Below are positions 27,393-58,161 of a stretch of 64,000 bases of DNA, piece after piece (the stretch's first letter is position 1; every line of letters begins with the position of its first letter). The DNA is taken from IMG/VR virus record IMGVR_UViG_3300028832_000101, positions 49,380 to 113,379 of that record. The stretch is one strand, 5' to 3'. The DNA is from a virus (taxonomy: Duplodnaviria > Heunggongvirae > Uroviricota > Caudoviricetes). Position numbers and translations under genes: made by a program. The notes beneath the pieces were generated by a model. It was not told where the DNA came from, ran no database searches, and saw only the letters and a program-made list of their open reading frames with translations.

Positions 27393-27394
27393 AT

Positions 27395-29155: not shown

Positions 29156-29156
29156 T

Positions 29157-29735: not shown

Positions 29736-29810
29736 TTTATTAATGTTTCTATTTGGATTAATATTAGGATGGTTTCTCGGAGCTTTATCTGATGAATAGA
29801 GGTGAAATAA

Positions 29811-30215: not shown

Positions 30216-30225
30216 GAGGATTTAT

Positions 30226-30489
30226 ATGAATAGTTATATTATTATTAATTTAAAAAACTTTACTTTTGCTCATGAAATCTATGTATTTAATGAAGAAAAT
30301 GAAGTTCTTACTAAAACACAATGTTCTATGGGAAATCTTGCGGAAACAGTTGCTGAATATAGTAATTTATATAGAGCAAATAAAGTTAAAATTATGGGAA
30401 AGAATGCTTTCTCTAAAAAACTAGGTCAAGAGATAACTCAAACAAGTTTAGCTAAATATGAATTAAAAATAGATGTAGAATATATTTAG
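30226..30489 (+). CDS. hypothetical protein
   Basis: ORF track. Confidence 0.4.
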   Translation: MNSYIIINLKNFTFAHEIYVFNEENEVLTKTQCSMGNLAETVAEYSNLYRANKVKIMGKNAFSKKLGQEITQTSLAKYELKIDVEYI

Positions 30490-30499
30490 GAGGGATAAA

Positions 30500-30751
30500 A
30501 TGAAATATTTATTAGAAACTACTGAAAATTATAGAGTTGATAATGAAGCAGAAGCAAAAGAATTAATTGAAAAGGCTAAAAAAGGTGATAGTTATATTTT
30601 AAAAAAATATACTTCACAATATAAAGAAAGAAAACAAAAAGGCGAAGTAATAGATGCTTGGTATAGAGTTACATTAGTAAAAGTATTTACTGATGAAAAA
30701 GAACCTGATACACAAGTTGAAATTACTTATGATAATGGGAGTGCATTCTAA
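30500..30751 (+). CDS. hypothetical protein
   Basis: ORF track. Confidence 0.4.
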   Translation: MKYLLETTENYRVDNEAEAKELIEKAKKGDSYILKKYTSQYKERKQKGEVIDAWYRVTLVKVFTDEKEPDTQVEITYDNGSAF

Positions 30752-31239
30752 TGTTTGGGGAAATGTTTGTGAATGGCGTTAAAGTCAATCAGGGGCCTAC
30801 CATTCAAGGAATTAATTATACTAAACTAAGAGACGATGCACATGAACCAACTCAAGGTAGCGCGTTTGCCGCGGGTTATGATTTATATGCTGCTATTGAT
30901 GAAGAGGTTGCAATTCCTCCTCATCAAACAGTAAAAATTGGTACAGGTTTATCTTTTGAATTACCTGAATATACCTTTGGAGCAATCTTCGCTAGATCTG
31001 GGTTAGCCACAAAACAAGGCTTACGTCCTGCAAATTGTGTAGGAGTTTGTGATAGCGATTATCGTGGAGAATACATAGTTGCTATACATAATGATGGAGA
31101 TGTTGGACAATTTATCCAACCAGGAGATAGAATTGCTCAATTAGTCATTATGCCTTATATTCCTGTTACTTTTGTAGAAACTAAAAATTTAAGTGAAACA
31201 GAACGCGGCGATGGTGGTTTTGGTTCAACAGGAAAATAA
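30751..31239 (+). CDS. dut: dUTP diphosphatase
   Basis: AAGYDLYA, ARSGLATKQGL, RGDGGFGSTG motifs. Confidence 0.8.
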   Translation: MFGEMFVNGVKVNQGPTIQGINYTKLRDDAHEPTQGSAFAAGYDLYAAIDEEVAIPPHQTVKIGTGLSFELPEYTFGAIFARSGLATKQGLRPANCVGVCDSDYRGEYIVAIHNDGDVGQFIQPGDRIAQLVIMPYIPVTFVETKNLSETERGDGGFGSTGK

Positions 31240-31271
31240 TAAAAATTAGACGGAAAGGAAGGAATTAGGAG

Positions 31272-32735: not shown

Positions 32736-32750
32736 TCTAAGTCTTTTTTG
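32719..32750 (+). terminator. intrinsic terminator gacttag...ctaagtc + TTTTTT overlapping stop of SPFH gene
   Basis: inverted repeat and T-run. Confidence 0.55.
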
Positions 32751-32776
32751 ATGAAATAAAAAATTCAGAGTATAAT
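32748..32776 (+). promoter_or_regulatory. promoter TTGATG-N17-TATAAT
   Basis: ttgatg 32748-53, tataat 32771-76. Confidence 0.45.
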
Positions 32777-32812
32777 ATAGAAAAGAAGGATTATGGGTTA
32801 GGAGGTTTAAAT

Positions 32813-33472
32813 ATGAAAATATTAGTTTTAAGTTGTGATAAAAATGATGATACTTTTGAAGCATTTCATCATTGTATGGAAAAATATTATCCAGAACATC
32901 CAGAAATAATATATGCAACTGAAACAATAATTAACCCCTATTACAAAACAATTACTAAAAAATATCCTTTAAATTTATGAACTAAAAGAATAAGAGAAAC
33001 AGTTCAAGAAATTGAAGATGATAAAATATTATTAATGATAGATGATTGTTTTATTAGAGAACCTGTTGACACTCAAAGAATTGAATATTTAAATGGAGTT
33101 TTAAAAGGAAATATAGCAATGTTTAATTTTGAAAAATCATTTGATGCAAGTGATGAAGAAACAGATATTATAGGGATAAAGAAAAGAAAACACCCTTCTA
33201 TCTATGAAGTTAGTTTATTATGTGGTTTATGACAAAAACAAGCATTAATAGACATACTTCAAGATGATAGCGATCCATGGACGGTAGAAGGAAATCAAAA
33301 AACTCACGGCTATGATTTTTATATTAATAGCGGAGATTATATTATAAACTGGGGATATGAAACATGAAGACCTGCAGGTTTATTTAAAGGTTTATGGTGT
33401 AAAGAGGTTGTTGACTTTTTTAAAAAAGAAGGAGTTGAAATAGATTATGGAAAAAGAGGATTTGCTGATTAG
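32813..33472 (+). CDS. hypothetical protein related to C-terminal half of the Stealth-like gene (three in-frame TGA)
   Basis: MIDDCFIREPV echoes CNDDCYFINPV of 27395-28345; three standard-code fragments in one frame. Confidence 0.45.
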
Positions 33473-34043
33473 TATAATAACTCCTTATTATAATACTTTA
33501 AAACAAACAAAATCTTTGGCTAAAGTATTAGAACCACAATTAACAGAAGATATAGAATGAATTATAATAGATGATGGATGTCATGAAACTGAATTAGATA
33601 CTATAAAAGCAACAGTTATTCATTTAGAGAATAATAGTGGCGGAGGAAGCGTTCCAAGAAATGTAGGCCTAGATACCGCAAAAGGTAAATATATTTTATT
33701 TATAGATAGTGATGATATGATAAAAAGAGATTATATTGAAACAATAGTTAAGAAAATAAAAACTGAAGATTTTGACTATTGTTATTTTGGTTGAGAATCT
33801 CATGCTTTTCATATAATCATAACAGACCAACCGCCTGCATGAAATTGTAGTATTTGAAATTGTATATATAAGAGAGAATTAATAGGTGATATTAGATTTA
33901 ATCCCGATTTAAGAATTGGAGAAGACCATGAATTTAATAATAAAGTAAGACATGGTAAGTGCGCACATATCCCTAAAATTCTATATTATTATAGTGATAC
34001 TCCTAATTCTTTAATAAAGCGAGGTAGTAAAGATGTTTTATAA
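33447..34043 (+). CDS. family 2 glycosyltransferase (four in-frame TGA)
   Basis: LISIITPYYN...IIIDDGC...FIDSDD GT-A fold motifs. Confidence 0.7.
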
Positions 34044-35148
34044 TAATATTTATTATTTTTATTATCTTTCAGATATAGGTGGAACTGAAACCTTTTTATA
34101 TGAATTATCAAAAAAATATTGTAATTATGATTTAACCATTATATATAGATATGCAGACCCTAGACAATTGGAAAGATTAAGAAAATATGTAAGATGTGTA
34201 GAATTTGTAGATGGTATGGTTATTAGATGTAAAAATGCTTTCTTTAATTATGGAATAGATATTATTGATAATGTAGAAGCAACAGATTTTTATACTTTCG
34301 TTATCCATGCTGACTATGAAGATATGAAAAATAGAGGACAATTATCAAGTAAGATACCTGACCATCCTAAATTGAATAGATGGATCGCGGTAAGTAAGCG
34401 TGCAGCTCAAGGCTTCCATGCAGTAACAGGAAAAAAAGTAGAAGTATGTTATAATCCTTATGAAATTAGAAAGCCTAATAAAGTTTTAAATTTAATTTCC
34501 GCAACTAGATTATCAAAAGAAAAAGGTAAAGATAGAATGATTCAATTTGCAAAACTATTAGATAAAGCTGGTATTAAATATATATGAACCATCTTTACGA
34601 ATGATAAGAATGAAATTAAAGATAATCCAAATATTATATATATGAAACCTAGATTAGATATTTTAGATTATATTGCTAATGCAGATTTTCTAGTTCAGCT
34701 ATCTGATAATGAAGGTTTTTGTTATAGTGTAGTTGAATCATTATGCGCGGGAGTCCCTGTTATAGTTACTCCATGCCCTGTATTTGATGAAATAGGTTTA
34801 ATTGATGGAGAAAATTGTTGGAAAGTTCCTTTTGATGTTACAGGATTTGATCCACGTAAATTGATAGATAAACCATTAAAATTTAAATACACTCCACCTG
34901 CAGATTCTTGGGATAAATATTTAAATAATGCACCTAGCACATGGCAAGAAGAATTACATACTAAATATAAAGTAATGGCTACTAGTGCTTATAAAGATAA
35001 TCATATTTCAGATAGCCAGTTACGTAAAACTCCAGAGCCTGGAGACACATGGTGGGTTACTCCAGAAAGATTAAGAATCTTGCTAGGAGAAAATTCTAAA
35101 AGAATAAAATTTGTAAAAGTAGTTGAGAAAGTCGTTTCAGAAGAATAA
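34033..35148 (+). CDS. GT-B fold glycosyltransferase (GT4/GT1-like), one in-frame TGA joins track ORFs 34033-34587 and 34642-35148
   Basis: SDNEGFCYSVVESLCAGVPVI motif. Confidence 0.7.
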
Positions 35149-35220
35149 TCAACTACTTTTTTCTTTTGCGCGTCTTGAAAATTTTTGTTATAATGTAAGT
35201 AAGAGAAGGAGATGACTCAA

Positions 35221-35718
35221 ATGATATTACTATCTTTAGATTTATCAACAAAGAGCTCTGGATGAGCAATCTTTGAAGATGGTTTTTTAAAAGATTCAGG
35301 ATGTATAGCATCTTCATCTACTGATTTACTAAAAAGAATTAATATAATGATAGATGGGATTAAAACAATAGTAGAAAAATATAATCCTAATAAAGTAATT
35401 GCAGAAGAAGTTAGACCTGAAAATGGTATGCAAAATTTAAAAACACATAGAGCGTTAATGTGGTTACAAGGCGGAATTGCTTTAATGCTATATGATTATA
35501 ATAAAAAATTAGAAATGGAATTAATATATCCTAGTTCATGGCGTGCGGCAATTGGTATTAAAACTGGTCGCGGCATTAAAAGAACTACTTTAAAAGAAAA
35601 AGATATTCAATTTGTAAAAGAAAATTATAATTTAGATGTTAATGATGATGAGGCGGATGCTATTTGTATTGGTTATTCACAATGTCATGATATAGAAACA
35701 GAAATAAATTGGGACTAA
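35221..35718 (+). CDS. RuvC-like Holliday junction resolvase (one in-frame TGA)
   Basis: LSLDLSTKSSGWAIF and DEADAICIGY catalytic motifs. Confidence 0.6.
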
Positions 35719-41053: not shown

Positions 41054-41079
41054 ATCTATCTCTCCTTTTATCTCAATCT

Positions 41080-41144
41080 TTTTTATCTTACTAAATAATA
41101 TTAAAAAACTAGTAAATAAATTATTTATATTAGGCCAAAATAAA
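41080..41144 (-). promoter_or_regulatory. conserved bipartite late-promoter-like motif, copy 1
   Basis: box B ATATTATTTAGTAAGATAAAAAA and box A TTTATTT(T)GGCCTAATAT with fixed spacing. Confidence 0.5.
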
Positions 41145-41145
41145 A

Positions 41146-41166
41146 AAGGAGCTATATAGCTCCTTC
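41146..41166 (-). terminator. intrinsic terminator aaggagctatatagctcctt + T-run on minus strand
   Basis: palindrome; contains stop codon of upstream gene. Confidence 0.6.
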
Positions 41167-42819
41167 TGGTTCATTTTTATTTACATGCCAAGCATTATCT
41201 TTTTTATAATATATTTTTTTTGCTTTAACTCATTGTCCATCTATTTTATACCAAGTTTTACCTTTTACTCATTGGCCATCTATTTTTATATATGCGGCCG
41301 CCTGATCTGCAGGTGTATTAACAATAATATTAGATGAAATAATTTCAGTATCTTCTCCTGAAGTTCCTTCATGTAATGCTTTTACTTTAACTTTTAAAGT
41401 ATATTCAGTTTCTTCAGTAAGTCCATCAAAATCATAAGAATTGCTTGTTTGATATGTTGTTCATGTTTCTCCTGCGTCTAAACTAAAACTATAATTTAAA
41501 GTTCTAGAAGGAGTAATAACAGCATCAATAGTAGTAGTAAAACTAAAAGGCAATAAATTAGAAATTTCAACTGAATTAATAATAGGAACTGGTAAAGTAG
41601 TTGAAAAAGTTACTGGACTATTTACTGTAGTAGTTGTACCTCCAGGATTAGTTACACTTAAGTAAATATTATAATTTGAATCAGCATCTAATCCTGTAAT
41701 TGTTCCTATTGTAGAAGTTCCTAAATTTAAACTAGAATAATTAGTTTCATTTGTTTTTTTATAGTATAGAGTATAGTTATTTATATTTAAACCATCTGCG
41801 GCAACCGCAACAGTAATACTATTATTAGTACTAGATTGATAAGTTATAGATAAATTACTTGGTTCAATTGTACTAAAACTTAAAATAACTGTTTTACCAT
41901 ATTCTATTGTTCCTGAGGTTGCTGCAGAACCGCTTGCAATTCCATTATATCTATATCCGGGTTTTGCGGTAATTTCTTCTACAGAGTATGATAAATTATA
42001 TGGTTGAGAAGTACAACAATCATTTGAATTACGAGTAATTCAAGAATTATTAACCTTAACACTAGCAGTCCCATAATCTCCTAAATTTCCACTTACTACG
42101 CCGCCATCCAATTGACCATTTAAATCTAAAGTATAATTTTTATATCTTGTTCAAACTTTTGTAACTCCGCCATCAAAATATTTTCTATATCTTCCGCTGC
42201 CAATATCAGTAGCATTTTCAACTCGATCAAATTCTAGATTATCACGTTTAATATCTATATTATAAATCTCGAAATATGATGTTTCATAATATGTAAATGT
42301 TCCAGGTTGATCTCATAAGTTATCATATGAGGCATCAATTTCAGATACATATACTGACATTGTTCCTACATCTTGCGTTTCTCTATCATCAGGAGTAACG
42401 ATATTAATATTATTTCAATTTCTTCTACGAGAATCAAAAACAACTCCACAACGATAGTTATTAATATTTGACACTCCTGAACCTTCAACAGTTAAAATAT
42501 AAGTAGCTCCATTTACAATACCTGAAATTTGTCAATTACTAAGTCCTGTTCAGTCTCCTTCTGAGTAATTTTTCCCCCAGTAAACGGATTTATTTCCATA
42601 AGTTAATGAATATGAAAAATCTTGAACGACAGTATCTCCGTCATACCTTCTTAAATGAACAGTTCCACCTGTACTTTGAGTATCTTGGTTTCCCCCACTT
42701 TTATAACCACTAATTTTTTCAATAGTAATAGAACCATTATAATTATTATTATATTGAACTCTAGTATATCCAGTATAACTTCCTAAACTCCCAGAGCCCA
42801 AATATTGTAAATTTGCCAT
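41152..42819 (-). CDS. receptor-binding/tail fibre-like protein, about 555 aa, FN3/Ig-like middle and C-terminal cell-wall-binding-like repeats
   Basis: ATG 42817-19 with RBS taggaggtg; C-terminus ...AAAYIKIDGQWVKGKTWYKIDGQWVKAKKIYYKKDNAWHV; middle not fully verified. Confidence 0.5.
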
Positions 42820-42832
42820 AAATTAGCACCTC

Positions 42833-43783
42833 CTAAATTGATGGAGGTAAATCTTCTATTAAGATATATATATCCCCATTCTTTCCTAAGCTTCCTGAAG
42901 GAGTTGTTGAGCCATAATATGCTTTTGTTGTTTCTGAAAGTATTTTATCAGATGTTCATATACTATTAATATTTGCAGTATTATCAACAGGATATCCACT
43001 AACAGCTTGAGAATTTAATACTACACCAGCTCCACCTGCATCAACATAATCTGCTTTATTCATATCTCCAGTCCCATCTTCAATAGAAGCTGTAGTTGTT
43101 CCTTCTAAGTCTGTAAGAGTAATGGTTGCTGTTCTTCCGCTTTTTGAAACTGACGCGGATGGACAATATCCTCTATCCCCAGTATCACCTTTTGGCCCTT
43201 TTATATTTACTGCAGTTGGATTTACTAATCCTTTATCATTAGTCCAATGAATTACTCCTTCATTGTCTATATAAGGAATAAAAGTTGCTCCATTATCTCC
43301 CATATATGTTGGAATATATTGATATTCAGTATTTCCATTTGTAAAAGTATAAGTTATCTTAGTCCATAAAAATTTTCCTGGATCAACAGTAATAAAAGTA
43401 TTACTTCAAGTACCAGTAGGTATGGTTGTACTATTATTACCTTGTTGATATTGCATAGTAATTGAATTAACAAAATCTCCATCTTTAGCTTTATAAACAT
43501 TAAGATATGTTATGTATTCAGAACCATCTGAATATGTATAAGTAATTTTTTGCCATAAATATTGTCCTTGTTCAACTTCTACAATAGTATCAGACCAATC
43601 TCCAACAGGGATTTGTGTTGGACTTGTTCCTGCCAAATATTGAATTTTAGTAGAAACAATTCCCCTTCCATCATCTCCCTTTACACATATATCAAAATCT
43701 AAATCATTATCTTTATTATAAATTTCTATATCAAAAGCAGTATCTACTTCAAGAGGTTCATACATTACAGTATCAGTTGCCAT
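42833..43783 (-). CDS. tail fibre-like protein with short collagen-like GPKGDTGDRG segment, about 316 aa
   Basis: track ORFs 42956-43303 and 43406-43783 same frame joined through TGA; stop TAG 42833-35 checked. Confidence 0.5.
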
Positions 43784-43785
43784 AA

Positions 43786-44139
43786 TTATACCTCCACTTC
43801 TCCAGCTTCAGGCCAAAGAGTAAAGATTTTTGGCCCATTTTTATCATAGCCGATTAAAGTAGTATCTCCATTTAATTCAATTTCATACCAATAATCAACA
43901 GAGTTATTTTTTAAAGGCTCTCCAATTTGAGTGTCTTGAGATGTTAATTCAAGATCAATAGCATCAGTATTTTCAGTTATATCAAATCTTTTTTGAAAAA
44001 TAACATTACTATAATCTCCATTTTGACAAATTGAAAATAAAATATAATCTCCAAATCTAAAAACATCTGAATTATTAATTAAATGAATACTTCCCTTATC
44101 TCCCCTATTGATATAAATATGTTTATTTTTAATTTCCAT
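43786..44139 (-). CDS. hypothetical 117 aa protein
   Basis: intact in standard code; RBS aaaggagaga. Confidence 0.55.
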   Translation of the reverse strand: MEIKNKHIYINRGDKGSIHLINNSDVFRFGDYILFSICQNGDYSNVIFQKRFDITENTDAIDLELTSQDTQIGEPLKNNSVDYWYEIELNGDTTLIGYDKNGPKIFTLWPEAGEVEV

Positions 44140-44171
44140 ATTATCTCTCCTTTTATATCTTGCGGCGGCCG

Positions 44172-44765
44172 CTATTTATTTTCTTTATGATTTTCGTCTA
44201 TTGCTTGGTAAATATGTGGTGGAACTATAATATCATGTGCTTTAGCCCATTTATTAAATTCACTAGTCATATACCAATCTCCATGCAAACTTACAAAATA
44301 TGTTTCAGCAAGTTTTAAAATTGTATCTATATTTTCAGGTTGTTGTTCTAAAATCATTAATAATTGAATTCTTAAAGTGTCTTTTCTAGTCTCTTGTGCA
44401 TTTTCAATTAAAAATTTTACATCATCTTTAAACATATCAATACGTTTATCAGAATCTTCTTTGTTTTGTTTTACGATTTCTCTTGTCTCTTGAAGAGCTT
44501 TAGTGAAATCTTCTCTTGCTTTATGTTCATATTTAATTATTTCTGCATGAGTATATTTAGCTTGTTTATCAACATAAAAAGAAACAAGTAATAAAACTAT
44601 TCCTAGAAATGCAAAAATACTATATGTTAATTCTGGAGAAGTATTTAAAACTTTGACTACAAAAGTCGCAGAAACTCCAACAGCGGCAAGTACTCCTGCA
44701 ACTCTTGCCCATATTGTTTTTATATCATTTCAAGGAGTTTTTATTTTTTCATCTTCGTTGTTCAT
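44172..44765 (-). CDS. putative holin-like membrane protein, 197 aa, two TM helices
   Basis: N-terminal hydrophobic segments VAGVLAAVGVSATFVV and IFAFLGIVLLLVSFYV; RBS ggaggagg; one in-frame TGA. Confidence 0.45.
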
Positions 44766-44792
44766 TTATATTTTTCCTCCTCCAAAATATAT

Positions 44793-44856
44793 TTTTTATC
44801 TTACTAAATAATATAAAAGTTTGTTTATATTAATTATACATATTAGGCCAAATAAA
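44793..44856 (-). promoter_or_regulatory. conserved bipartite late-promoter-like motif, copy 2
   Basis: identical box B; box A TTTATTTGGCCTAATAT; same 46 nt register. Confidence 0.5.
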
Positions 44857-44858
44857 AA

Positions 44859-44887
44859 AAGATAGATAGTTAAAATCTATCTATCTT
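44859..44887 (-). terminator. intrinsic terminator aagatagatag-ttaaaat-ctatctatctt + T-run (minus strand)
   Basis: 11 bp stem; contains stop of gene 44886-46643. Confidence 0.6.
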
Positions 44888-46643
44888 AACTTCAACCATT
44901 TTCAGCTAAAGTTGTTCATTCAGAATAAGTTTTACATTTATTTTGTTGTGTAGAACTTAATCCAATATAAGTTAGTGTCTTAGTTCCAGTATAGTCGCTT
45001 GTTAAAGTTGCTAAAGAAGCTAAAATATTATGCAAACTTGTATCACTAAGTTTAGTACAACTACTAAACATATATTGACATGTTTTTGCTTTTGGCATAT
45101 TTATTACTGGAACACTATCTAATTTACTACAACTTTTAAACATAGAATTAAAATTAGTACAAATTGGAGTTAAAATTGTACTTGGAATATCTGTTATTTC
45201 GGAACAAGAATTAAACATATAACTACAATTTGTGCATTTAGATAAATCTAAACTACTAGGTATTGATATTAATTTACTACAATAATTAAACATATAACTA
45301 CAATTTGTAGCTTTAGATAAATCTAAATTACTATAAATATTAGTTAACGCCCTACAATAATAGAACATATTTGATAATGAACCAGTACAATTAGATGTAT
45401 TTATTCCACTTGGAATAGTAGTTAATAATTGACAGCTATAAAACATATAAGAAGCTTGTGTTAAACTAGGTAAGTTTATTGTAGAAAGAGTCGTTAATTT
45501 TGGGCAATAATTAAATAAACTGTTAGCATTAGTACAATTTGGAAGATTTAAAGGGATAGACATTTGTTCTAAATTTGAACAACTTGAAAACATCCCACTA
45601 ACAGATGTAGTTGTACTTGGAATAGTTAATGAATTACTATCTATTTGTTTTAATGCTGAACAACCTAAAAACATATTACTAAAATCAGTACCAGAAGATG
45701 TATTTATATTTTTAACTTGTTGTAATTTAGTACAATTATAAAACATTTGAGAAACAATTGTTGCAGATGAACAATCAATATTTTCAACTTTTATAAGATT
45801 ATTACAATTATAAAACATTTGAGAAACATTTGTGGCGGTAGAAAGATTAATATTATTTACTTCTTCTAAAGCAGTACATCCATAACAAAATTGTCTTCCT
45901 GATGTACTTTGACATAAAGGCATATTTATATTAGATAATTTTTTTAAATTAGTATAATTTTTAAATCATGTTGAAATAGTTGAAGTAACACTTGCAAGAT
46001 TATATCCATCTATTTCTTCTACTGTTGTTGGGAAAAATTTAATTCCTGAAGTTAAACCTGATAAATTTATATTATATACTTTTTTTATATTAGAACAATT
46101 ATAAAACATAGAACTCACATCATTATAATTAGTTATCTGAGACAAATTAATATCTTTAATAATTTCTAAGTTTGTACAATTTTGATACATATAAGAACAT
46201 CTAACTGCTTGAGAAAAATCAAGAGCAGGAGTTTCTTTTAAACCAGTACATCCACTAAACATGCCATAAAAATCTCTTCCTTTTGAAGTATCTAACGTTC
46301 CTGCAGGAATTTTTTCCAAGCTTTGACATTTATTAAACATATAATTAAAAGTTATTCCATTTGAAGTATTTATAACTGGAATATATTTTAAATTTTTACA
46401 ATTAGTAAATAAATAAGAAAAGTCATCAAGAGTGCTATAATTACAATTTTTTATAAAAGATGCATCTTCAAATAAAGAATTTCCAAATTTTATTTTATTA
46501 GAAATAGCAGAAGGAGTAGATGAAGTATTGATAATAGTATCTGCCATATCTCTAGGTTTATATACAGCATTCAAATTGTTAGTTTTAATTCTTAATGCAT
46601 CAGCAATATCTGTTAAACTATTTTCATCTATTAAAACATTCAT
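44886..46643 (-). CDS. BspA-type leucine-rich repeat (LRR_5-like) Cys-rich protein, about 585 aa
   Basis: repeated NMFxxCxxLxxI units; track ORFs 44916-45923 and 45966-46643 bridged by TGA; RBS aaggaggt. Confidence 0.6.
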
Positions 46644-46658
46644 ATTTTAAACCTCCTT

Positions 46659-47786
46659 CTAATATCCTGTAGTCCAGCCCATGGCTTCTAATGCCGCCCA
46701 ATTTGATAAAGATGTACATGTAGTAGCTTGACTTTGAGAAAGTCCTATATGAGCTAAAGTTTTAGTTCCTGTGTAATTAGTTGCTGTTGAAAGTGTTTGT
46801 AAAATATTATTTAGACTAGTGCTTGTAAGATTTGGACATCCAGAAAATATGTCCATTAAAGAATATTGATTTACAACATTTGGAATACTAAAAGCAGGAA
46901 TATCTCTAAGCGCATCGCAATAAGCAAACATATCTTCTATATCTTCTGCAGCGGGAATCGTAATAGAGCTAACTGACACAAGATTATAACAATCTAGAAA
47001 TGAACAATTAAATCCAGTTGCTTTTGGAGCATTTAAAGATGGAATTGAAGTTAAACCATGGCAAGATACACAAATATTATCCAAATTAATCGCCTCTGGT
47101 AAACTTCAATTAGGGAAAGTAATTAAACCGCATCCTTGAAAAGTGCCATCAAAATCTTGTCCTTTAGAAACATTGTAAACAGGAATAGTTGTTAAATTAC
47201 TACATCCTGCAAACATTCATCGAAAGCTTGTTCCGTTAGAAAGATCAAAATTACTTGGAGAAGGAAGAGTAGTTAATTGAGAACAGTTTGCAAACATATT
47301 TGCAAAAATAGTTCCTTTTCCAACTCTCATTCCTTCAAAAGTTGTTAAATTATTACAAGCCTGAAACATGGTTCCAAAATTAGTACCATTTCCTGTTGGT
47401 AAAGAATTTCCTTGTGCTAAAGTTATTGTTTCTAGATTACTGCAACCTGAAAACATACCACTAAAATTTAAACCTGCATCAGCAGGAGTTGTACTTAAAT
47501 AAGGGAAAAAATTTGTTCCTACTCCAGTATTGGAAAACATGCCACTAAAGTCAGTTCTATTTCCAATAGGATTATTTGAAACCATATTAAACATATAAGC
47601 CATTGCAGAAAGGTCGCTTCCTGAATTCCCAAAACTTATAGTATTAATATCTGCTTGGGAAGAAGTTGAACTAATTGCATCTGCCATTTCTGCAGGTTTT
47701 AATTTTAAATATGGATTTCCTTTTACTGTTCTAATTGCATTTGCAATATTTTTTAAAGCAATTTCATTTACTCAAACATTTGCCAT
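46659..47786 (-). CDS. second BspA-type LRR protein, about 375 aa
   Basis: track ORFs 46659-47084 and 47217-47687 merge via TGA; ATG 47784-86 overlaps stop of upstream collar gene. Confidence 0.55.
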
Positions 47787-48430
47787 TAATATTCAACCTC
47801 ATTCCCATTTATATTGCTATTAAATAAATTATTTATATACGCGCAACTATAAGCATCTGTTGTACTTGTAGAAAAATCATCTACTACATTTGAGAATGTT
47901 GCAACAGTATTTTTCGCTTTAATTAAATAATTTACTACAATATATGGTTGTAAGTTTGTATGAGCTTCATCTCCTCCAGTATTATTTGATGTTACTGTTG
48001 CTGATACATGATCTGGACCATCTGCAGGTGGATATTGTCCTGGGTTAGATGTAAAATTTTGATCATCAACAGTTCCTAAATAAGTACTATGAGAATGACT
48101 AGGTATTTGAGAAACAGTTAAAGTAACTTCTTTTACTCCTCCTATTTCTCCAAGCGTATCAAATTCTGTCTGAGTTAAATCTAATCCAACTCCAACTCTA
48201 CCTTTTTTATTAGGTATATTAAATGTAGTACTTCCATCTCCAGCTCCATAAGTTGTTCCTATTACATCAAATAATTCATTATATTCAGTTCTACTTATTG
48301 CACTACCATCACATATTAATCAACCAGTAGGAATAGAAGAACCATAAAATTCAATCCCAGTTCCAATAGCCATACTATCAAGAGCTTTTATTGCAAGATC
48401 TACTCATTGTCCATTGTATTTAAATTTCAT
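47786..48430 (-). CDS. phage tail collar domain protein, 214 aa
   Basis: IPTGWLICDGSAISRTEYNELFDVIGTTYGAGDGSTTFNIPNKKGR...SHSHS...NLQPYIVVNYLIKA; both in-frame TGA fall on conserved Trp. Confidence 0.7.
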
Positions 48431-48444
48431 AATCTGTCCTCCTC

Positions 48445-51400
48445 CTATAATGATGATGATGCTTTTGTATATTCTAATACTATAAATATTTTATCAAAGG
48501 TGTCTGTAAAAGTAGTTACAGAAGTTCCTAGATTAATATATATTTTAAGATTATCTATATCAAAAGAACATTTATCTCTTGTAGAATTATAATATCCTAA
48601 TTTAGCATATCCAACAGGAAGGTCTTCTTCAGCTGGATATCTTAAATATGAATGAGTATAATCTATAAAAATCATATCTGCCCCAAGATTTGATATATCA
48701 ACCTCATTATTTGAAGATGTAATAATATCGTTTGGATCATATTCAACACATATTCTATAAATAGGTTTTCCATCAATTCATATTTTATTAGTTAAAGTTT
48801 CAGTAGTAGAGAATACATCTGGTTCACTACCTCCACCACCACTTGCAGAAGATACTTCATTTGGATTAATCCATAAAATTGCGTTTCCAGTTGGTTGAGT
48901 AGTAGATATTGAAATTTCATTATTGTCAGATGCAGCAATATGTAAAGAATTTGCTGTTCTTGTTATATAATACATTTCATTGCGTTTTGTTGTATTATTA
49001 AATATATATGCAAGAGCAGGTTTATTTAAAATCATATTATCTCAATCCCCTATAATCAAAGAGTTTGCAGGGAATGTAAAAGTTGTAGATTGAGAAGTTT
49101 GTGTATCTGTATAAGTAATTGTTATTGGAGATTTTACTATTGTAGCAGAAGAATTAAATAATTGTTCATTATTAGTTACAGAATCAACTACATTTATTCT
49201 AAGATTTAAATCTATGGCGTCTACAGGGGATTCATCTGTAAATATAGTAGTATTTGTAACATTTGAACCATTATATGTGAACATTTTATATCCATAATCA
49301 CTAACTACAATAAATGTTATATAAGGTTCATCTGGATCTGCAGTAAAATTATAACAACAAATTGCAGATTTTGCTCCAAAATCTATATATCTAGAATCTC
49401 CAACTCTTATGCGGAAGCTTGCGCCTCCACCTCCGACAACATAATAATGAATTCCTCTAGGAAAATCTACAGGTCCATAAGCACCATTAATAGTTTCAAA
49501 AAGAATTCCATCTGTATTAGAAATAACATTATTTGCATCTATATTGATTCCAGTACCAGCAGTATAACTAATATCTCCAAGTTCAATTTTGTTTTTAGTT
49601 ATAGTTCCAGTTACCCAAGTTGTAGGATCATTTCCTGATAAAATAAATTCATAATAATAAGTATCTCCAGCAGTCTCATTTAAAATTCCTAAATTTCCAA
49701 TAATAGTAAATACCATTTTGTCTGTCGTATCTCCTGAAGCCTCTCCATGAGAATAAGGTACATAATAATTTTCTGACTTTTGTAAAGTAGTATTTATATT
49801 CGAATATTGTAAATATAATTGTTCATTCATACTAGCAGATTGTAACGAAGCTAAATTAGAATAAACTGTTCCTTTATTATCAGTTGCATTTATAGTAAAA
49901 GTTCCATTAACAGCATCTATAGATAAAATTGGCATAAAAATTGCTTCATCTTTATGTGTACTAGTTGTCTTTGTATAAGTTTTTGTACTACTTGCCACAG
50001 TTAAATTTACAGAAGTAAAGACATCTTGCCCTACACTTGGAGCCTGATATGGTAAAGTAGTTGAAAATATTGCAGTGTTATTTGTACTTATATTTAATAA
50101 AGGAATATATAAAAATACATTTGTACTTTTTTGTCATTTACCAATAACTTGGTATCCTTGAGAAACTAATGTAGCAATTTCTGTTCCAGTATAATTAGTT
50201 GCATTATTACTATCTAAAGTAACAATAGCAGTAGGTTTAATATCATAATCAGTTCCGAAATCAGCTTGAGTCATTGCGGAAGCCGCAGTTACATGACCTT
50301 CTGCATTAGTAGTTATTTTATATAAATCACTTGTAAATGCACTACCTTTTGCAGTTGCATGGTCATATGCAATTTTACCTCTATCTCCACGATATGCAGT
50401 TGATTCAGTTTCTCCTAAAGCCAAATCTGAAGCTACTACAACATATATAGAACCTGACCATCTATAAGATTTATTAGTAGATAAATCTACATATATTTTA
50501 CCTGATTCTGGAGTAATCTCTGTTGTATAAGTAGATTCTTTATAGAATTTACCATCTGTTAAATTATAATAACCTTCAATAATATCATCTACATAAGCAG
50601 GTAATTGCGAGCTAGGAACCTTTCCAGAACTATCAAGAGTAGCAATTCCATTAGCTTGACCTAATTTTGCATTGTCTGCAGGAGTAAAACCTAATGCAGC
50701 AATTATTGAATTTGAGCTTACTTCATTCCAATATTCATATTCTAAACTATCTTTTGATAAATAATAAATTTTATTATAGTCGCCAACGGAAAATAATAAA
50801 TTTGCTATTCCCATATTACCATAATCTGTATTTAAAAAATTATAAGTCATATAACCTAATTTATCAGTTTTTAAGAAAGCTCCATTTTTTAATATACAAG
50901 TTGCCTCTCCATCAAAACCATCAAATTCAGGTAAAGCAATTCTATCTTTCCATTCTTGGAAAATATAATTACTATTATTTTCAATATAACTCTTTATAGG
51001 TAAAGTATTATCTTTATAGAAAGTGAATTTATTTATTGTTCCAAAAATAGTTGTACCTGGACAATATTCTCCCCAAGAGTCTTCATACTCTAAAAAATTA
51101 ATACCTCTTACATCAATATTTACATTACAAACATCTGGATAAACATAATATGTTTTAATTTTATCTGGGTCAAAAATAATAATTTCATTATCTTCATTAT
51201 CACCATCTTTATAAGTTTCAGAATTTCCATTACTATCAATGACAGTCCATCCACTATTTGATAAATTTAAAATTGCATAACTATTAGCAGGGATTGCATA
51301 AATAGGAACAACTACATCAGTTCCATAGCTTGTCTTTCCTTTAAATAACCAAAAACGAGTAATATTTTGTCTACCTTCATAAACAAAAGTAATTCCTCAT

Positions 51401-52020
51401 CTAATAGAAGAATCCACATCATTATCAACATATGCAGAAGTAGTCCATTCAATAGAGGTTGGATTTCCTATCTCATTAAATTCTCCAGCATTAATTCTTA
51501 CATTCATTATTTCTTTTCAATTAGATATATATTTTCCTCTAATATTGGCATTAGAACTATTTCCTTGTAAACTATGTAATTCATTTATGTTTTGTTTTAA
51601 ATTTGAAATTGTATATAGACCAGTTGCAGTTGTATCTTCTGAACGTCTATTAGGATTTATAATCTCAGGTAGATCTGCTAAACTAGATACATGACCGCCA
51701 TATATAATTGAATCATATAAATTATATATATCTTCAAAACTAATTTTTTCTTGAATTGCATTAGTTAAAAAATATATCATATAATTTATTTCGCCTTTGT
51801 CATAATAATTAGCTAAATTACTTACCATTCTAGTAATATAATTACTACCATTATCTAACTCTGCAACATCAGTAGGCATAATTTGAATTCGTTGCTCTGA
51901 ATCTAAATCAAGATAAATTAATTTTTTGTCTGTTATAAAAAATATATTTCCTTTTTCCTTATCATAAGTTGCTAATTCATTATAAGCAATTCTATAAGGT
52001 TTAAAAATATCTTGTGCCAT
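48445..52020 (-). CDS. very large structural protein, about 1191 aa (tail fibre/host-specificity-like)
   Basis: track ORFs 48445-48675, 48778-49035, 49042-49998, 50134-50850, 51517-52074 all one frame with TGA at every junction checked; ATG 52018-20 with RBS aaaggagg. Confidence 0.5.
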
Positions 52021-52094
52021 TTTTAATCCTCCTTTTATATCTATGCGGTGGCCGGTTAAAAGATTCTTAGACAAGGCTCCCGCAATATTTTTTA

Positions 52095-52159
52095 TTTTTT
52101 ATCTTACTAAATAATATTAAAAATTAATTAAATTCATTAGTTATTTTAGGCCAAATAAA
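52095..52159 (-). promoter_or_regulatory. conserved bipartite late-promoter-like motif, copy 3
   Basis: identical box B; box A TTTATTTGGCCTAAAAT. Confidence 0.5.
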
Positions 52160-52161
52160 AA

Positions 52162-52181
52162 AGATAGTATCTCTACTATCT
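52162..52181 (-). terminator. intrinsic terminator agatagtatctctactatct + T-run (minus strand)
   Basis: contains stop of GT2 gene. Confidence 0.55.
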
Positions 52182-53255
52182 ATAATCATCTTTTGTGCAC
52201 AAGTTTATTCTAATATTATTTTGTTTATATTTTTTTGGTATTTTCTTTTGTATCTTTTTTAAATCTTCTTCTTCATATATTGATGCATTTAAATCTTTAA
52301 CATATTGATCTATTGTATATTCTTCAGCTTCACCATCATATTGAATTTCATTTAAGAAAGCTTTAAAATCCTCTACTGGAATTATTCTTTTTATTTTAGG
52401 TAAATAGCATAAATGATAAAATTTATAACAATAGTATTTAGCTTGGTCTATAAAGAATTGTTTTTTAGATTTTACTATCTCTTTTAATACATCATAAAAA
52501 TCTAATAATCTATAACAAAAGAAATAGATTTCATCTTCTTCTTTAATATTATCTAATCCACCTTGTTCTAAAACATAAATTGAACTATCTACCATTCCGC
52601 AAATACTTCTATCTATTAAGAATTGTTTATCATTACCACGTACTAATGAATCTTTATGGTATGCTCAAAAATAAGTTGGAGTATTTATTACACCAAGAGA
52701 CTCTCCTTTATAAAAACTTTTCATTTCAAATAACATATTAAATCCAACATCTTCATTAGCTCTAAAAGGCGGAAACCATATATTATTATCTTCAATAAAA
52801 TTTCTTCTATATAATCTTGCAAATACATGAGAGTCAACTTCACCATTGATAGCGCCAAATTCACAATTCTCATTTTCTTCTAATATATCAGACCTTAAAA
52901 CAATTAATTGTTTATTATCTTCCATTATTCCTAACATTTGCTCTAATGATTTAGGTAATATTAAATAATCATCAGCATCAACAAACATTATATAATCATT
53001 TTTAGTATTTTTCATACCCTGATTTCTAGCTTCACCAGGCCCGCAATTCTTATCTAATTTAATTTCTTTTATATCCATAAAATTAGAAAATAATTTAATA
53101 GTATCTTGATAATCTCCTTCAGGACAACAATCATTAACAATAGTAACATCTACTTTATCAATAATAGATTGTATTGCTATTGAATGTAAAGTTTTTTCTA
53201 TTGTCTTATGTGCTTTATAGGCGGGAATTATTATATCTATTTTTTTATCTTTCAT
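52176..53255 (-). CDS. family 2 glycosyltransferase embedded in tail module, about 359 aa
   Basis: IIIPAYKAHKTIEKTLHSIAIQS, VNDCCPEG, FVDADDYL; track ORFs 52176-52595 and 52665-53255 joined by TGA. Confidence 0.65.
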
Positions 53256-53295
53256 ATAAAGCCTTCTTTCCTTATCTTTATTATATCATAAAATT

Positions 53296-53340
53296 CATAA
53301 AAGGTCAAAAAAAAAGACTACTGACTAACAGTCAATAGCT
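53296..53340 (-). terminator. intrinsic terminator gactgttagtc + T9 (minus strand)
   Basis: hairpin then ttttttttt. Confidence 0.5.
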
Positions 53341-53669
53341 CCTTTAAATTCAGGTAATGTTTTTAAATAATTATACCCATCTGTTACAGTAAAATCTTCA
53401 ACATATTCTGGTAACATATACCATTTTAATTCTTTAAAAGTATTACTTCCTTTTAGCCATAATTGTTCTTCTGCTGGAGTGATAGGTTCATCATTATCTA
53501 TTTTCTTTTGAATAACCTCAGCTTCAGCTTCTAATTCTCTTTTAGATTCATCTATATATGAGTATAATTGAATTCCTGTACTTTCATTTGTTTTATTTGT
53601 AATTTCATAAATTCTATGGTATGAAACCATAACTCCATTATATGCTTCTCTTTCTAATAATAAAGCCAT
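53325..53669 (-). CDS. hypothetical 114 aa protein
   Basis: intact ORF; RBS aaaggagg. Confidence 0.6.
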   Translation of the reverse strand: MALLLEREAYNGVMVSYHRIYEITNKTNESTGIQLYSYIDESKRELEAEAEVIQKKIDNDEPITPAEEQLWLKGSNTFKELKWYMLPEYVEDFTVTDGYNYLKTLPEFKGAIDC

Positions 53670-53683
53670 TTTAATTCCTCCTT

Positions 53684-54472
53684 TTATGCCGTTCTATTTC
53701 AAATATATACACAAACATAAGGTTCAATATTATCTGTATTACCTACATTTCCGCTAGGTGCTCCAGTAGTTCCAGCCGCAACAGTGTGAGTATGTGAACT
53801 TGTATGACTATGATTAAAACTATGATTATGAACCATTGTATGCGTATGATCTATTGAGTGTGTATGCCCATTTATACTATGAGTATGATTATATGTATGG
53901 CCATGTGAAAAATTCCACCATACATATCCCCAGAAGTCTGCATTTGTACCATCATGAGCATAACGTCTATTACCATCAGCCCAACCAATATAGATACCCG
54001 CAGCATCTGAATCACTTTGTCCATCTACGAACATTAATTGATCTGGTAATTCATCTCCTAGATTTCAAGATAAACCAGGGTCTGCAGCATCTAATCCTGG
54101 ATCTCTATCATCTGTATCAATAGATGCAGTTGATATTGTAGGACTTGTTGAACTTGAAGTTCCTGCAGCCGCTTGACTAACAGTAGGACTTGTACTACCT
54201 GATGTAATACTTATTGAGTGTGTATGCGCGGGAATGCTATAAGAACCATAACTAGTTCCTGCAGCATAAGTATGAGATGAATCTAATTGACCTGCGCCAA
54301 TTAATAGTCTACCTGCTCCATATGCAACCCATGTTCCACCAAATATAGAACCTGGATTTGTACTTGATGTAGAAATATATATACTTCCAATAGGATAAAA
54401 ATTATCTACATTTCAAATTTTTCCTGATATATGACTGTCTCCAGCCACAATTAAATCTTTTATAAATGCCAT
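53684..54472 (-). CDS. His-rich collar-domain tail protein paralog 1 (262 aa)
   Basis: N-terminus MAFIKDLIVAGD...YPIGSIYISTSSTNPGSIFGGTW, HTHSINGHTHSIDHTHT repeats, C-terminus EPYVCVYIWNRTA; RBS aggaggtg. Confidence 0.65.
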
Positions 54473-54484
54473 CTTCTACACCTC

Positions 54485-55276
54485 CTATGCTGTCCTTTTC
54501 CACATGTATACTCCGATACATGGTTGTAAGTTTCCTGAAGTTCCAGCTCCAGTAGATCCAGAAGTTCCTGTAAAAGTATGAGTGTGCGCAAAAGTATGAG
54601 TATGTGCTTCTATTGAATGTGTATGAGCACTTCCATGACTATGACTTGCGCTATGATGGTGACTGTATGAATGTCCATGATTTGCACTATGTGAGTGTCC
54701 CATCGCATATCTTATTTTTCTCCAAGAGTTACTTGATGTACCACTTGTTTTAAATTGATGGTAATCCGCAAAAGTAAACCAAATTCTTGAAGAACTATGT
54801 GAACCTTTTTGCGAACAGAAAAATCTTGTTGGAGAAGCAGCATCACCAGCTAATTCAGTACTACTTGTTGCTGAACTGTTTCCTGATGATGTACTTGAAT
54901 TTCCAGTATGTTCAGTCGTAGAACTTGAATTAAATGCATCTTTATTTGCTATTCCCATATCACCTGTGAGTGTCTCTGCAGCAGCCTCACTTGAAGTTGC
55001 AGAAATACTATGAGTATGGTCTTGTATATCTAAGGAACCGCCTTGTTCATTTGCGGCAATAGTTTTTGTTTTACTTTGCCCATCAGTTCCAGTCCCAACT
55101 CCCATTAATACTCTTCCAGTACTAAATACTTCTCAAGTACCACCAAAAATATCTCCTGGATTAGTTGAATTAGTTGATATATAAATAGAACCAATAGGAT
55201 AAATACTATCTACGAAATGCGCTTTTCCCGCAATTCTTAAATCTCCTTTTACTATTAAATCTTTAAAAAATGCCAT
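54485..55276 (-). CDS. His-rich collar-domain tail protein paralog 2 (263 aa)
   Basis: MAFFKDLIVKGD...YPIGSIYISTNSTNPGDIFGGT; GHSHSANHGHSYSHHHSASHSHGSAHTHSIEAHTHTFAHTHT; ends LQPCIGVYMWKRTA. Confidence 0.65.
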
Positions 55277-55292
55277 ATAAACCCCCTCTTTC

Positions 55293-56123
55293 CTAAGCCG
55301 TTCTCTTCCACATATATACACCTTGATAAGGTTGTAAATTATTTGCTGTGGTTTGGTATGTAATTGAAGGATGACCTGTAGAGCCTGAAATGGTATGACT
55401 ATGCGCGGCAATAGTATGGCTATGAGAGAATGTATGACTATGTGCAGCAACACTATGTGTATGTTCAGGAATTCTATGGTAATGACTAGGTACTGTATGA
55501 GAATGGGAAGGTAAACTATGATTATGAGACATATTAATATGCATATTTGCCCAACCATTTGTTGATGAACCACTGTCTTTAAATCTTCGATTACTACTCC
55601 ACTTAACAGCCGCTCTATCTCCACTGTTACTATAATAACACATATTATTACTTAAGTTATTTTGATGAGTCATGAAGATATTTCTTTGGTGGTCACCACT
55701 ATTACCACCTGCTCCAGACCAATTACCTGTTCCACCTGAAGTTCCGCCAGTATTCCCACTAGTTCCTCCACCAGTTAAGCCTTCAGTATTATCACCTGTA
55801 TTACCTGTCGTAGTTGAAGTAGTTGTATTATTTGCGGAAGTCATTGCCGCAAAACTATGAGTGTGTGTACCTATATTATAACTACCCCCTGTTGTTCCTC
55901 CAGTAAATGTTTTTGTAACACTATCTTTATCTGTATAACTACCTGCACCGATCAAAGAACGACCTTGTCCAAATGCTTCTCAAGTTCCTCCAAAAAGTTG
56001 ACTTGGATTTGTAGAGGCAGTAGACATATATATAGAACCTATTGGATACATACTTTCCAAAACGTTTATTTTTCCTATAAATCTGGCGTCTCCGCTGACA
56101 AATAAATCTTTTAAAATCGCCAT
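55293..56123 (-). CDS. His-rich collar-domain tail protein paralog 3 (276 aa)
   Basis: MAILKDLFVSGD...YPIGSIYMSTASTNP; HNHSLPSHSHTVPSHYHRIPEHTHSVAAHSHTFSHSHTIAAHSHT; ends LQPYQGVYMWKRTA. Confidence 0.65.
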
Positions 56124-56149
56124 ATCCTTCTACCTCCTTTTAATGAATT

Positions 56150-56212
56150 TCATATCCATTAAATATTATAAAAAATTGATTAAAATTGTTATTTATATTT
56201 GCCCAAATAAAA
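56150..56212 (-). promoter_or_regulatory. degenerate copy 4 of bipartite late-promoter-like motif
   Basis: box A TTTATTTGGGCAAATAT and diverged box B at the same 46 nt register. Confidence 0.4.
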
Positions 56213-56235
56213 AAAGATAGGCATAAGCCTATCTA
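56205..56235 (-). terminator. intrinsic terminator agataggcataagcctatct + T-run (minus strand)
   Basis: contains stop of gene 56229-56663. Confidence 0.55.
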
Positions 56236-56675: not shown

Positions 56676-57239
56676 TTATATTGATGTATAAGGACATTGA
56701 TAATAACAAGGAGGATTTAATACATATCTACCTTGTAAATTTAAAATTGAGTCAGTTGAGTTTTGAATAGCGGCAGTGATTGCTGCAGTTTGATTTGCGT
56801 TAGATAAAGCATCTCTAGTTGTTTGTAATTTATCACTTATTTCTCTAATATAGTTATCTTGGATCATTTGTCTAGTAGCATTTCCTTCTTGAGCAACTAG
56901 GTTGCCAATTGCGGCGATACTATTACTTAATTGTAATGACATATCTTTCATACTTACTAAATTATTATAAGCAGAGTTTAATACAGTATCAGTAATTCCA
57001 CATTGTCCTTGAGCTAATCCTCTGATTGCATTATCTTGAGATTGGAAATATAAGCTATTTTGTAAATCGCTTTGACCTAAAGCAGTTGCACTATTTCCCC
57101 AGAATCCTCCATTTCCACCAAATAATAAGATGAAAACGATAATTAATGCTAAAATACCATTTCCTCCAAATAATCCGTCTCCGCTACCTTTAGTTAATGC
57201 TAACACATCAGCAGCTGACATTCCTGTACTTTCATTCAT
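56676..57239 (-). CDS. Gly-rich membrane protein, 187 aa
   Basis: hydrophobic ILALIIVFILLFGG; RBS ggaagggga. Confidence 0.55.
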   Translation of the reverse strand: MNESTGMSAADVLALTKGSGDGLFGGNGILALIIVFILLFGGNGGFWGNSATALGQSDLQNSLYFQSQDNAIRGLAQGQCGITDTVLNSAYNNLVSMKDMSLQLSNSIAAIGNLVAQEGNATRQMIQDNYIREISDKLQTTRDALSNANQTAAITAAIQNSTDSILNLQGRYVLNPPCYYQCPYTSI

Positions 57240-57877: not shown

Positions 57878-57906
57878 ATAAATTCAATCCCCTTCCTAAA
57901 AACAAA

Positions 57907-57951
57907 AAACCGCACAGTAGAAGTTAACGAATTAATCTACTGTGCGGTTTA
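57907..57951 (-). terminator. strong intrinsic terminator accgcacagtaga...tctactgtgcggt + TTTTTTGTTTTT on minus strand
   Basis: 13 bp GC-containing stem; sits inside the leader of gene 57419-57877. Confidence 0.65.
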
Positions 57952-57955
57952 ATTT

Positions 57956-58020
57956 ATTTTCAATCCATTTCCAAGAGTAAAATCAATCCTTTTCCTTTGA
58001 AGTAAATTAATTCAATCCCT
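57956..58020. repeat. three direct repeats of TCAATCC(n)TT(T)CC spaced about 24-25 nt
   Basis: tcaatccatttcc, aatcaatccttttcc, attcaatccctctc. Confidence 0.5.
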
Positions 58021-58161
58021 CTCTAATTCGAGATTAAGAGAAAAAGATACATCAGAAATTCTTTCTTCTTTTCCCTTACATGTATATATGAATTTTAGCT
58101 TAGCCAAATTATAAAGATTGTCCCAAAGTTGTAAAAATTTTTGCTAAAATTTCATAGCTTA

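Follow-up and report, generated by a model that had tools for sequence, protein, structure and literature searches.

Terminator-linked two-box cassettes before the late operons of a TGA-recoding rumen phage clade: a candidate late-promoter consensus

The late genes of the tailed phage represented by IMG/VR record IMGVR_UViG_3300028832_000101 (Caudoviricetes) are divided by copies of one intergenic element, a hairpin and T-run followed by two short blocks at a fixed distance from each other (box A and box B), and the locus raises the question of what this element does and what reads it. The stretch of DNA analysed here, referred to as the window, comprises 64,000 nucleotides (nt; positions 49,380 to 113,379 of the record); its late gene strand, which encodes tail, baseplate and tail-fibre proteins with TGA as tryptophan (Trp), is the minus strand from 35836 to 64000. 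An initial annotation had seen in the element a phage-specific late promoter or an activator-dependent element; all tests run agree with that proposal, the support being comparative, not experimental. In the form that we tentatively favour, the cassettes would be terminator-promoter junctions, at which a phage dimeric activator at box A acts together with the host RNA polymerase on a promoter that has no −35 element.

Four copies (c1–c4) lie on the minus strand where the initial annotation placed them, as direct reading of the sites, their alignment and a 76-nt unit profile agree; across the 64 kb, the profile (nhmmer) returned four sites with E-values of 2e-15 to 5e-13, the next match having an E-value of 0.83. 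The order shared by all four is hairpin, T6–7, the box A sequence ATTT(T)GG(C/G)C(T/A)AA(T/A)AT, an A/T stretch of fixed length, box B, a Shine-Dalgarno sequence (ribosome-binding site, RBS) and ATG. Cassette c1 (41079..41167) has its hairpin at 41148–41167, its T-run at 41142–41147, the box A core GGCC-TAA at 41130–41136 and box B at 41079–41101, and is followed by the RBS (41062–41066) and ATG (41053) of a 789-amino-acid (aa) tail protein. In c2 (44792..44887), the hairpin occupies 44859–44887, the GG of box A 44848–44849 and box B 44792–44814, upstream of a 197-aa membrane protein (ATG 44765) whose codon 12 is TGA. The corresponding parts of c3 (52095..52181) are found at approximately 52162–52181, 52151–52152 and 52095–52117; here a 75-nt G+C-containing leader precedes the ATG (52020) of a ~1190-aa protein with five in-frame TGA codons. 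The diverged c4 (56148..56234) has a hairpin at 56215–56234, box A TTTGGGCAAAT with GG at 56203–56204, and a variant box B, TATAATATTTAAT-GGATATGAAA (56148–56170), before the ATG (56123) of a His-rich tail-fibre paralogue. Box B ends 26, 27, 75 and 27 nt before the ATG in c1 to c4, respectively. Within the c3 leader (52021–52094, minus strand), a G+C-rich segment, GCGGGAGCC...CCGGCCACCGC, is unusual in a genome of 28% G+C and is similar to a segment of L004 (13420–13510); this leader may be a structured 5′ untranslated region of the gene for the ~1190-aa protein.

Box B of c1–c3 reads (T/A)ATATTATTTAGTAAGATAAAAAA, and the identity first noted among these copies holds exactly for the 23-mer ATATTATTTAGTAAGATAAAAAA, which is found three times in the window and in none of 100 shuffles. 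Box A alone is not significant (six matches at up to three mismatches, 2.9 expected). The register of 46 nt from the GG of box A to ATTTAG (G1 to G46) is as originally described; the spacer, given as 28 nt, measures 25 nt with the boxes as they were then written, and the claim that c4 keeps the register stands as far as TATAATATTTAAT, after which 1 nt is deleted. The terminator reported before each copy was recovered as a hairpin with T-run in every case, three of the four being called by a terminator scan and that of c3 folding at −8.1 kcal/mol. Operons drawn with genetic code 4 split exactly at the cassettes (one ending at 56229, then c4, 56123–52176, c3, 52020–44886, c2, 44765–41152, c1, and 41053–35836), and the first gene after each cassette is the start of a tail, baseplate or tail-fibre operon; the cassettes are intergenic and confined to one strand.

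The original count of four proved too low. A fifth, diverged copy (58073..58136, minus strand; E-value 1e-8 with the family profile described below) opens the 285-nt gap 58162–57877 and has box A TTTGGGACAA, with GGG at 58122–58124, and box B CATATATACATGTAAGGGA (58073–58090), with GTAAG in the c1–c3 register. It has no terminator upstream, is overlapped by a sigma-70-like TTTACA-16-TATAAT (58108–58135) and is referred to below as class II, c1–c4 being class I. Two more copies, with the box B variant ATAGATTTAGAAG adjoining an RBS, lie on the same contig at L002 7607–7700 and 355–440, approximately 1.1 and 8.3 kb past the end of the window. The genome therefore holds at least seven cassettes, five in the window and two just beyond it. 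The motif search of the genome and of related phages that the initial annotation had proposed as a check yields, in sum, these three extra copies and cassettes in ~15 related genomes.

Those relatives were reached through a conserved 187-aa late protein (window 56676–57239) with 695 metagenome homologues, whose neighbourhoods were taken from ENA, JGI and IMG/VR contigs of 105–140 kb, and the family profile was built by iterated nhmmer and run on the window and the related loci. In this set, the profile identifies 63 sites, 63 of 63 on the late-gene strand, and none in the 36-kb early/replication half of the window; 50 distinct instances fall in ~15 related genomes of 105–140 kb, 35 in class I and 15 in class II. 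Cassettes are present where the 187-aa protein is at least ~58% identical to the query, and the family profile finds none in the more distant relatives L010 and L027–L044. Chance likeness in AT-rich DNA is ruled out by this orientation and by the conservation of the element.

Across the ~15 genomes, flanking proteins are 58–85% identical and the spacers and hairpin stems have fully diverged; what stays invariant is GG-n-C in box A, T-n-A-n-AT in box B and the fixed register. Conservation is 89–100% at GG, C and AA of box A and at T, A and AT of box B, and the 26 columns between are mostly free. The near-invariant positions of class I are GG-n-C-(T)-AA, A-T in columns 30–31, TTT-T-n-A-t-A-T-A and TAG/A-A, with the spacing from box A to box B unchanged in 34 of 35 copies. 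All 35 distinct class I copies are flanked by a terminator and a gene start; hairpins of 8–14 bp adjoin T6–7 in 29 of the 30 copies examined, and their mean free energy is −11.9 kcal/mol, versus −2.4 kcal/mol in class II. Since class I stems are unrelated in sequence, the hairpin is kept as a structure. The start codon of class I lies 61–133 nt past GG (median 82). In a numbering (idx) that begins with the first G of box A, box B ends at idx 47, and the Shine-Dalgarno sequence never starts upstream of that position. Box A has a partial dyad, T13 T14 g G16 n C18 t A20 A21, with four of five pairs symmetric; c4 and the class II box A read ATTTG-N2/3-CAAAT. Class II occurs once per genome, with no hairpin upstream, its box A (TTGGGACAAA) lying within a sigma-70-like TTTACA-16/17-TATAAT and its box B reading CATATATA-n-ATG(T/A)A(A/G)G. 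A hairpin whose stems covary starts at idx 41–47 of the class II copy in 9 of 13 phages, as would suit a stem-loop at the 5′ end of a transcript.

The exact box B and box A+B patterns had no match in IMG/VR, and with a loose degenerate pattern ~14 of 118 loci were true cassettes among the matches listed, the others being mostly chance. Searches against cultured phages gave no match for the late region (megablast) or for the 187-aa late protein (tblastn). A 79-aa early protein had no match in metagenome contigs and a 468-aa protein none in IMG/VR. A search of the literature found no earlier description of this motif or of a YonO promoter sequence.

The element was compared with known bacterial and phage signals. 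On the other strand, the early intergenic regions carry TTGACA-17-TATAAT at 11–12 of 12 positions, mostly with the TG extension (TGnTATAAT), and the cassettes are, as the initial annotation had said, unlike them: the best −35/−10 pair per cassette averages 8.2/12, and its −10 starts at 16 different positions, with class II, overlapped by its sigma-70-like sequence, as the exception. A sigma-70 scan of the late region showed no enrichment (118 found, 130 expected). The hexamer at idx 37–42 (tATAtt) has its A in 89% and its T in 69% of copies, with the invariant T and A at the equivalents of −15 and −13. A sigma-54 promoter was rejected: GG is invariant, but there is no GC at −12, the columns 10–12 bp on are A/T nearly throughout, and GG is followed by a variable base. 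A T4-type late −10, TATAAATA, is present at idx 8–15 in c1, c4 and several relatives, the others having six of its eight positions in an AT-rich context; no gp55 or gp33 homologue was detected in general Pfam and PHROG scans of the window proteins. Two further candidates were set aside, the Bacteroidetes −33 TTTG / −7 TAnnTTTG promoter, whose spacing misfits and whose host is not the Gram-positive one expected here, and an SPO1-like −35 role for TTAGA, behind which the RBS follows too closely.

The distance between the two invariant blocks is constant and the sequence between them free, orientation is strict, and the element stands right before the RBS; together these features argue for a DNA initiation signal, and the pattern of conserved positions is in keeping with protein-DNA contacts. 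On the reading as a terminator-promoter junction, the hairpin and T-run would terminate the upstream late operon and so insulate each operon. Box A (TTgG-n-CtAA) would be the site for a phage-encoded late activator, probably a dimer, and box B, ~33 bp downstream, would supply a −10-like core (T-n-A-t-ATA-tt) and a start region (TTTAG/ATG, then purines). Host RNA polymerase would begin 6–8 nt past the core, at ~idx 46–50. This placement just after box B is indicated by three observations: the Shine-Dalgarno sequence never precedes idx 47, an extended −10 (TGnTATAAT or TGnTATTAT) is present at idx 34–42 in a few relatives (L006 1247, L026 11461), and class II hairpins begin at idx 41–47. With such a start, the center of box A would lie near −45, and this position, the absence of a −35 element and the partial dyad together favour a dimeric activator working with a −35-less promoter. 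Since there is no −35 element, the promoter would be silent until the phage factor is made, confining tail and tail-fibre genes to late infection. The T-run sits at the place of an UP element, which may account for the fusion of box A to the terminator.

Several points weigh against this reading. That transcription begins at box B is something we infer. No activator, sigma or polymerase gene was detected among the window proteins with Pfam and PHROG, and the sigma factor or late activator that the initial annotation had suggested seeking elsewhere was not found in the parts of the genome covered (91 of ~136 kb). The invariant T-n-A of box B misfits positions −12/−11 of a sigma-A −10 hexamer, and a second −10-like block, wATAAATAAT (idx 9–17), 25 bp upstream, could be the true −10. 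The center of box A near −45 departs from the canonical activator positions, −41.5 and −61.5. Finally, an activator model does not require that box A be fused to the T-run in a fixed way.

The closest parallels to an activator-dependent junction are the −35-less, activator-dependent late promoters of Mu, controlled by C/Mor (Plys, PI, PP, Pmom), and of P2/P4, controlled by Ogr/Delta (PP, PO, PV, PF). There, too, several late operons of a genome share one signal, with a −10-like element, no −35 and, a constant distance upstream, a dyad-like site for a small phage activator, and are read by the host polymerase. The Mu and P2 sites are TTAT-N6-ATAA or TGT-N12-ACA, whereas the TTgGnCtAA found here is unrelated; further differences are the proposed center near −45, the fusion of box A to a terminator T-run and the low-G+C Gram-positive host, and homologues of Mor/C or Ogr were not detected in the 91 kb covered. 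The T4 middle promoters (MotA box at −30 and a sigma-70 −10, with AsiA) and those that depend on the SPO1 sigma factors gp28 or gp33/34 likewise place a phage-specific upstream box in the stead of the host −35 for temporal control. The distance of ~33 bp from box A to the −10-like core is, however, far beyond −35/−10 or MotA-box geometry, and no sigma or AsiA/MotA-like gene was detected in the window proteins with Pfam and PHROG.

A possible though rather doubtful alternative is that the cassettes are promoters of a phage-encoded RNA polymerase, such as a single-chain enzyme of the YonO type, with box B spanning the start and box A serving as an auxiliary contact. The phage has a distant kinship to SPbeta, visible in a DnaE-type polymerase related to YorL (39% identity) and in a YorF-family protein, and YonO-like genes are known in phages of Enterocloster, Thomasclavelia and Clostridium. 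Box B fits as well, being repeated exactly over 23 nt and finishing in TAG and purines: the T7 and SP6 promoters are also 23 bp long, and its end resembles TATAG-GGAGA (T7) and TATAG-AAGAG (SP6). This likeness to the T7/SP6 type extends to a highly conserved box of ~23 bp, a TA(T)AG end and a purine-rich start, but an upstream box at −45 is not known from T7-type promoters, late operons here end in bacterial-type intrinsic terminators, and no T7-like polymerase was seen in the genome parts covered. YonO transcribes the late genes of SPbeta from a promoter that precedes a non-coding RNA and for which no sequence is defined (PMC5467207); here the class II copy likewise precedes a non-coding leader.

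Against a phage polymerase, hairpin/U-run terminators, the signals of the bacterial multisubunit enzyme, end the late operons, and YonO lacks a flap domain (PMC5467207). No YonO-like open reading frame (ORF) was found by tblastn or profile in the 91 kb covered or in 41 related loci; a search of the window, L002, L244, L248 and L250, which make up those 91 kb, gave no tblastn match at E ≤ 0.01 and a profile score of 9 bits, which is negligible. A separate search for YonO homologues returned close Bacillus-type relatives only and is uninformative for this clade. Conversely, the cassette profile had no match (E ≤ 1) in ~80 YonO-encoding SPbeta-like loci (1.1 Mb), namely the best 80 from a YonO-based retrieval, none of them from this clade. 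SPbeta P(YonO) is comparable in that the replication modules are related and SPbeta has a dedicated control of its late strand; SPbeta has one late operon with one promoter, whereas this clade has many cassettes. If a YonO-type polymerase does read the motif, its enzyme family would thereby gain a first promoter consensus. In diverse YonO phages (the SPbeta-like loci L046, L065, L085, L094 and L101), a conserved block, for instance GGAGATAATCGTCATAAGGGAG...CTAATTTCCACATAAAAGGG, lies ~150–250 nt past the yonO stop codon, ahead of the HU-like yonN.

It is quite unlikely that wATAAATAAT (idx 9–17) is the real −10 and box B a transcribed sigma pause, ~25–30 nt downstream of this upstream-block promoter, at which a Q-like antiterminator is loaded according to the logic of lambda PR′/qut. 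Such an arrangement would explain why conserved A-T pairs (columns 30–31 and 52–53) mark two A/T blocks that lie 22–25 bp apart, why idx 8–17 holds TATAAATA in c1 and c4 and TATAAT in c2, and why all class I cassettes occur in a terminator-rich late region. Lambda PR′-qut likewise combines a promoter and a second −10-like element with a terminator-containing late region, but as a single site per genome, whereas at least seven cassettes are present here. An antiterminator loaded once would make cassettes behind every terminator needless; moreover, only 69% of copies keep the A at the −11 equivalent in the upstream block, the T-run occupies the place of a −35 in register, no Q-like gene was seen in the genome parts covered, and class II hairpins start right after box B rather than 25 nt into the transcript.

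An RNA-level role, whether as a site of endonuclease processing or as a signal for the translation or stability of late mRNAs that arise by read-through or upstream initiation, appears just as improbable as antiterminator loading. It would fit with the strict confinement to one strand and the constant place shortly before the RBS, and with the conserved TAG/ATG and purine-rich tail that adjoin the Shine-Dalgarno sequence in several copies. Yet from box A to box B there is no consensus fold (RNAalifold predicts zero pairs, and the mean minimum free energy z-score is +0.22), Rfam 15 has no match at the gathering score anywhere in the window, and box A, coming right after an efficient-looking terminator, would rarely be transcribed; a constant distance between short invariant blocks, with free sequence between the two, is instead typical of DNA recognition. 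It is very improbable, and was already disfavoured, that the cassettes are no more than paralogous leftovers, in an AT-rich genome, of an intergenic segment that was duplicated as a cassette for shuffling or recombination and has no sequence-specific function. The near-identity of c1–c3 within one genome and the AGATAG...CTATCT common to the c2–c4 hairpins lend themselves to this reading, but invariant positions survive in ~15 genomes despite diverged spacers and stems, and the orientation is 63 of 63.

A phage-specific late promoter joined to a terminator is of an ordinary kind; the consensus is new. Taken as terminator-promoter junctions, the cassettes would provide a clade-wide late-control consensus for widespread uncultivated rumen/gut phages (~136 kb, TGA to Trp) and mark the late operon boundaries in this clade. 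The motif also offers a handle on the responsible factor, whose gene would be one that every genome with the motif has (L002–L026 other than L010, and L252) and that relatives lacking the motif do not.

Only if TGA encodes an amino acid is the minus strand intelligible between 35.8 kb and the end of the window: reading it so raises ORF coverage from 0.77 to 0.88 and lengthens the largest late ORF from 456 to 1218 aa. TGA stands opposite Trp of non-recoded relatives at 42 of 71 positions, the remainder being mostly aromatic residues. The genes that carry TGA recoding encode tail, baseplate and tail-fibre proteins. Plus-strand genes at 1–24 kb contain no in-frame TGA, and some of those past 24 kb (24572–35718) also use TGA as Trp. 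Code use differs between relatives: L006, L007, L023 and L024 are not recoded and retain their cassettes, so late transcription control and the code switch are separable, and L013 and L015 may have TAG recoding instead.

Genes of the plus strand encode gyrase B/A, NAD ligase, DnaB, primase, RecJ and a DnaE-type polymerase, which aligns with SPbeta YorL over 99% of its length; with this protein and that of the YorF family, the phage is by sequence comparison a distant SPbeta relative. A 136,118-bp JGI contig is near-identical to the 137-kb ENA contig from which the window derives (ERZ27256849 k141_4501037), and because the two are circularly permuted relative to each other, the map is circular, at ~135,991 bp. 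Lysins of the relatives are of the CHAP or GH25/CW_7 type. Among species-representative genomes there were only two matches, L252 (CADACC010000011.1) and L253 (CADAWN010000024.1), both contigs binned in metagenome-assembled genomes of rumen Erysipelotrichaceae (RUG13160 and RUG13689), one of them holding both cassette classes. This suggests Erysipelotrichaceae as the host family, an assignment that composition binning could have produced as an artefact; with relatives in such contigs, a sigma-A-type host polymerase is the natural default.

Downstream of the class II copy lies a leader of ~170 nt (57900..58072, minus strand) with a 5′ hairpin, four GGATTGA repeats and a terminator. One of the repeats forms the mini-ORF ATG-GAT-TGA-AAA-TAA (57954–57968), and a strong hairpin with T-run (57904–57947) stands directly before the RBS of a 152-aa gene (ATG 57877). 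The relatives L004 (9180–9340), L013 (8510–8690), L018 (9190–9360) and L026 (9200–9370) share with it a conserved AAAGGGAAATGGATTGAA element, a covarying 5′ hairpin and the strong terminator. This element reads ATG-GAT-TGA in nine of the 12 TGA-recoded relatives; the four non-recoded loci (two lineages) do not have ATG-GAT-TGA. In four phages reading TGA as Trp takes the mini-ORF up to, into or through the terminator stem. The leader might be an attenuator that senses TGA recoding, within the regulon of a new late-transcription factor, although we regard this as unlikely. Early in infection, translation would halt at the TGA of the Met-Asp-TGA mini-ORF; once a phage tRNA(UCA) reads TGA as Trp, it would continue towards or into the terminator stem, and the late genes beyond would be opened. 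This attractive, weakly supported idea is weakened by a very short spacing between Shine-Dalgarno sequence and ATG, by the recurrence of GGATTGA without ATG, and by L008, L012 and L014, which have no mini-ORF, as well as L013 and L015, which have it with no evident TGA recoding. Alternatively, the leader may be one that binds a protein.

Three tandem His-rich (HxHxH repeat) tail-fibre-like paralogues occupy 53684–56123 of the window (minus strand); their N-termini are similar, MA(I/F)(L/F/I)KDL(F/I)V.GD..., with weak matches to Gp10_C and to PHROG tail-fibre families, and the program-made ORF 55624–54485 has a spurious 5′ extension. A glycosyltransferase gene (53255–52176, minus strand) has its own terminator-like hairpin (53317–53339) and a near-consensus sigma-70 promoter, TTGACC-17-TATAAT with TG (53280–53308), and no cassette; it looks like a host-promoter-driven insert within the late strand. 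In the same genome, upstream of the window start, the leftward strand of L248 (6225–15545) carries an array of 24 tRNAs, one of which, 96 nt in length with a long variable arm, has the anticodon UCA and is a candidate TGA suppressor. Inside this array are a tmRNA (L248 12163–12536), a ROOL RNA (RF03087, 151.7 bits, L248 14909–15545) and a partial OLE-like match (RF01071, 118.6 bits, L248 7349–7554).

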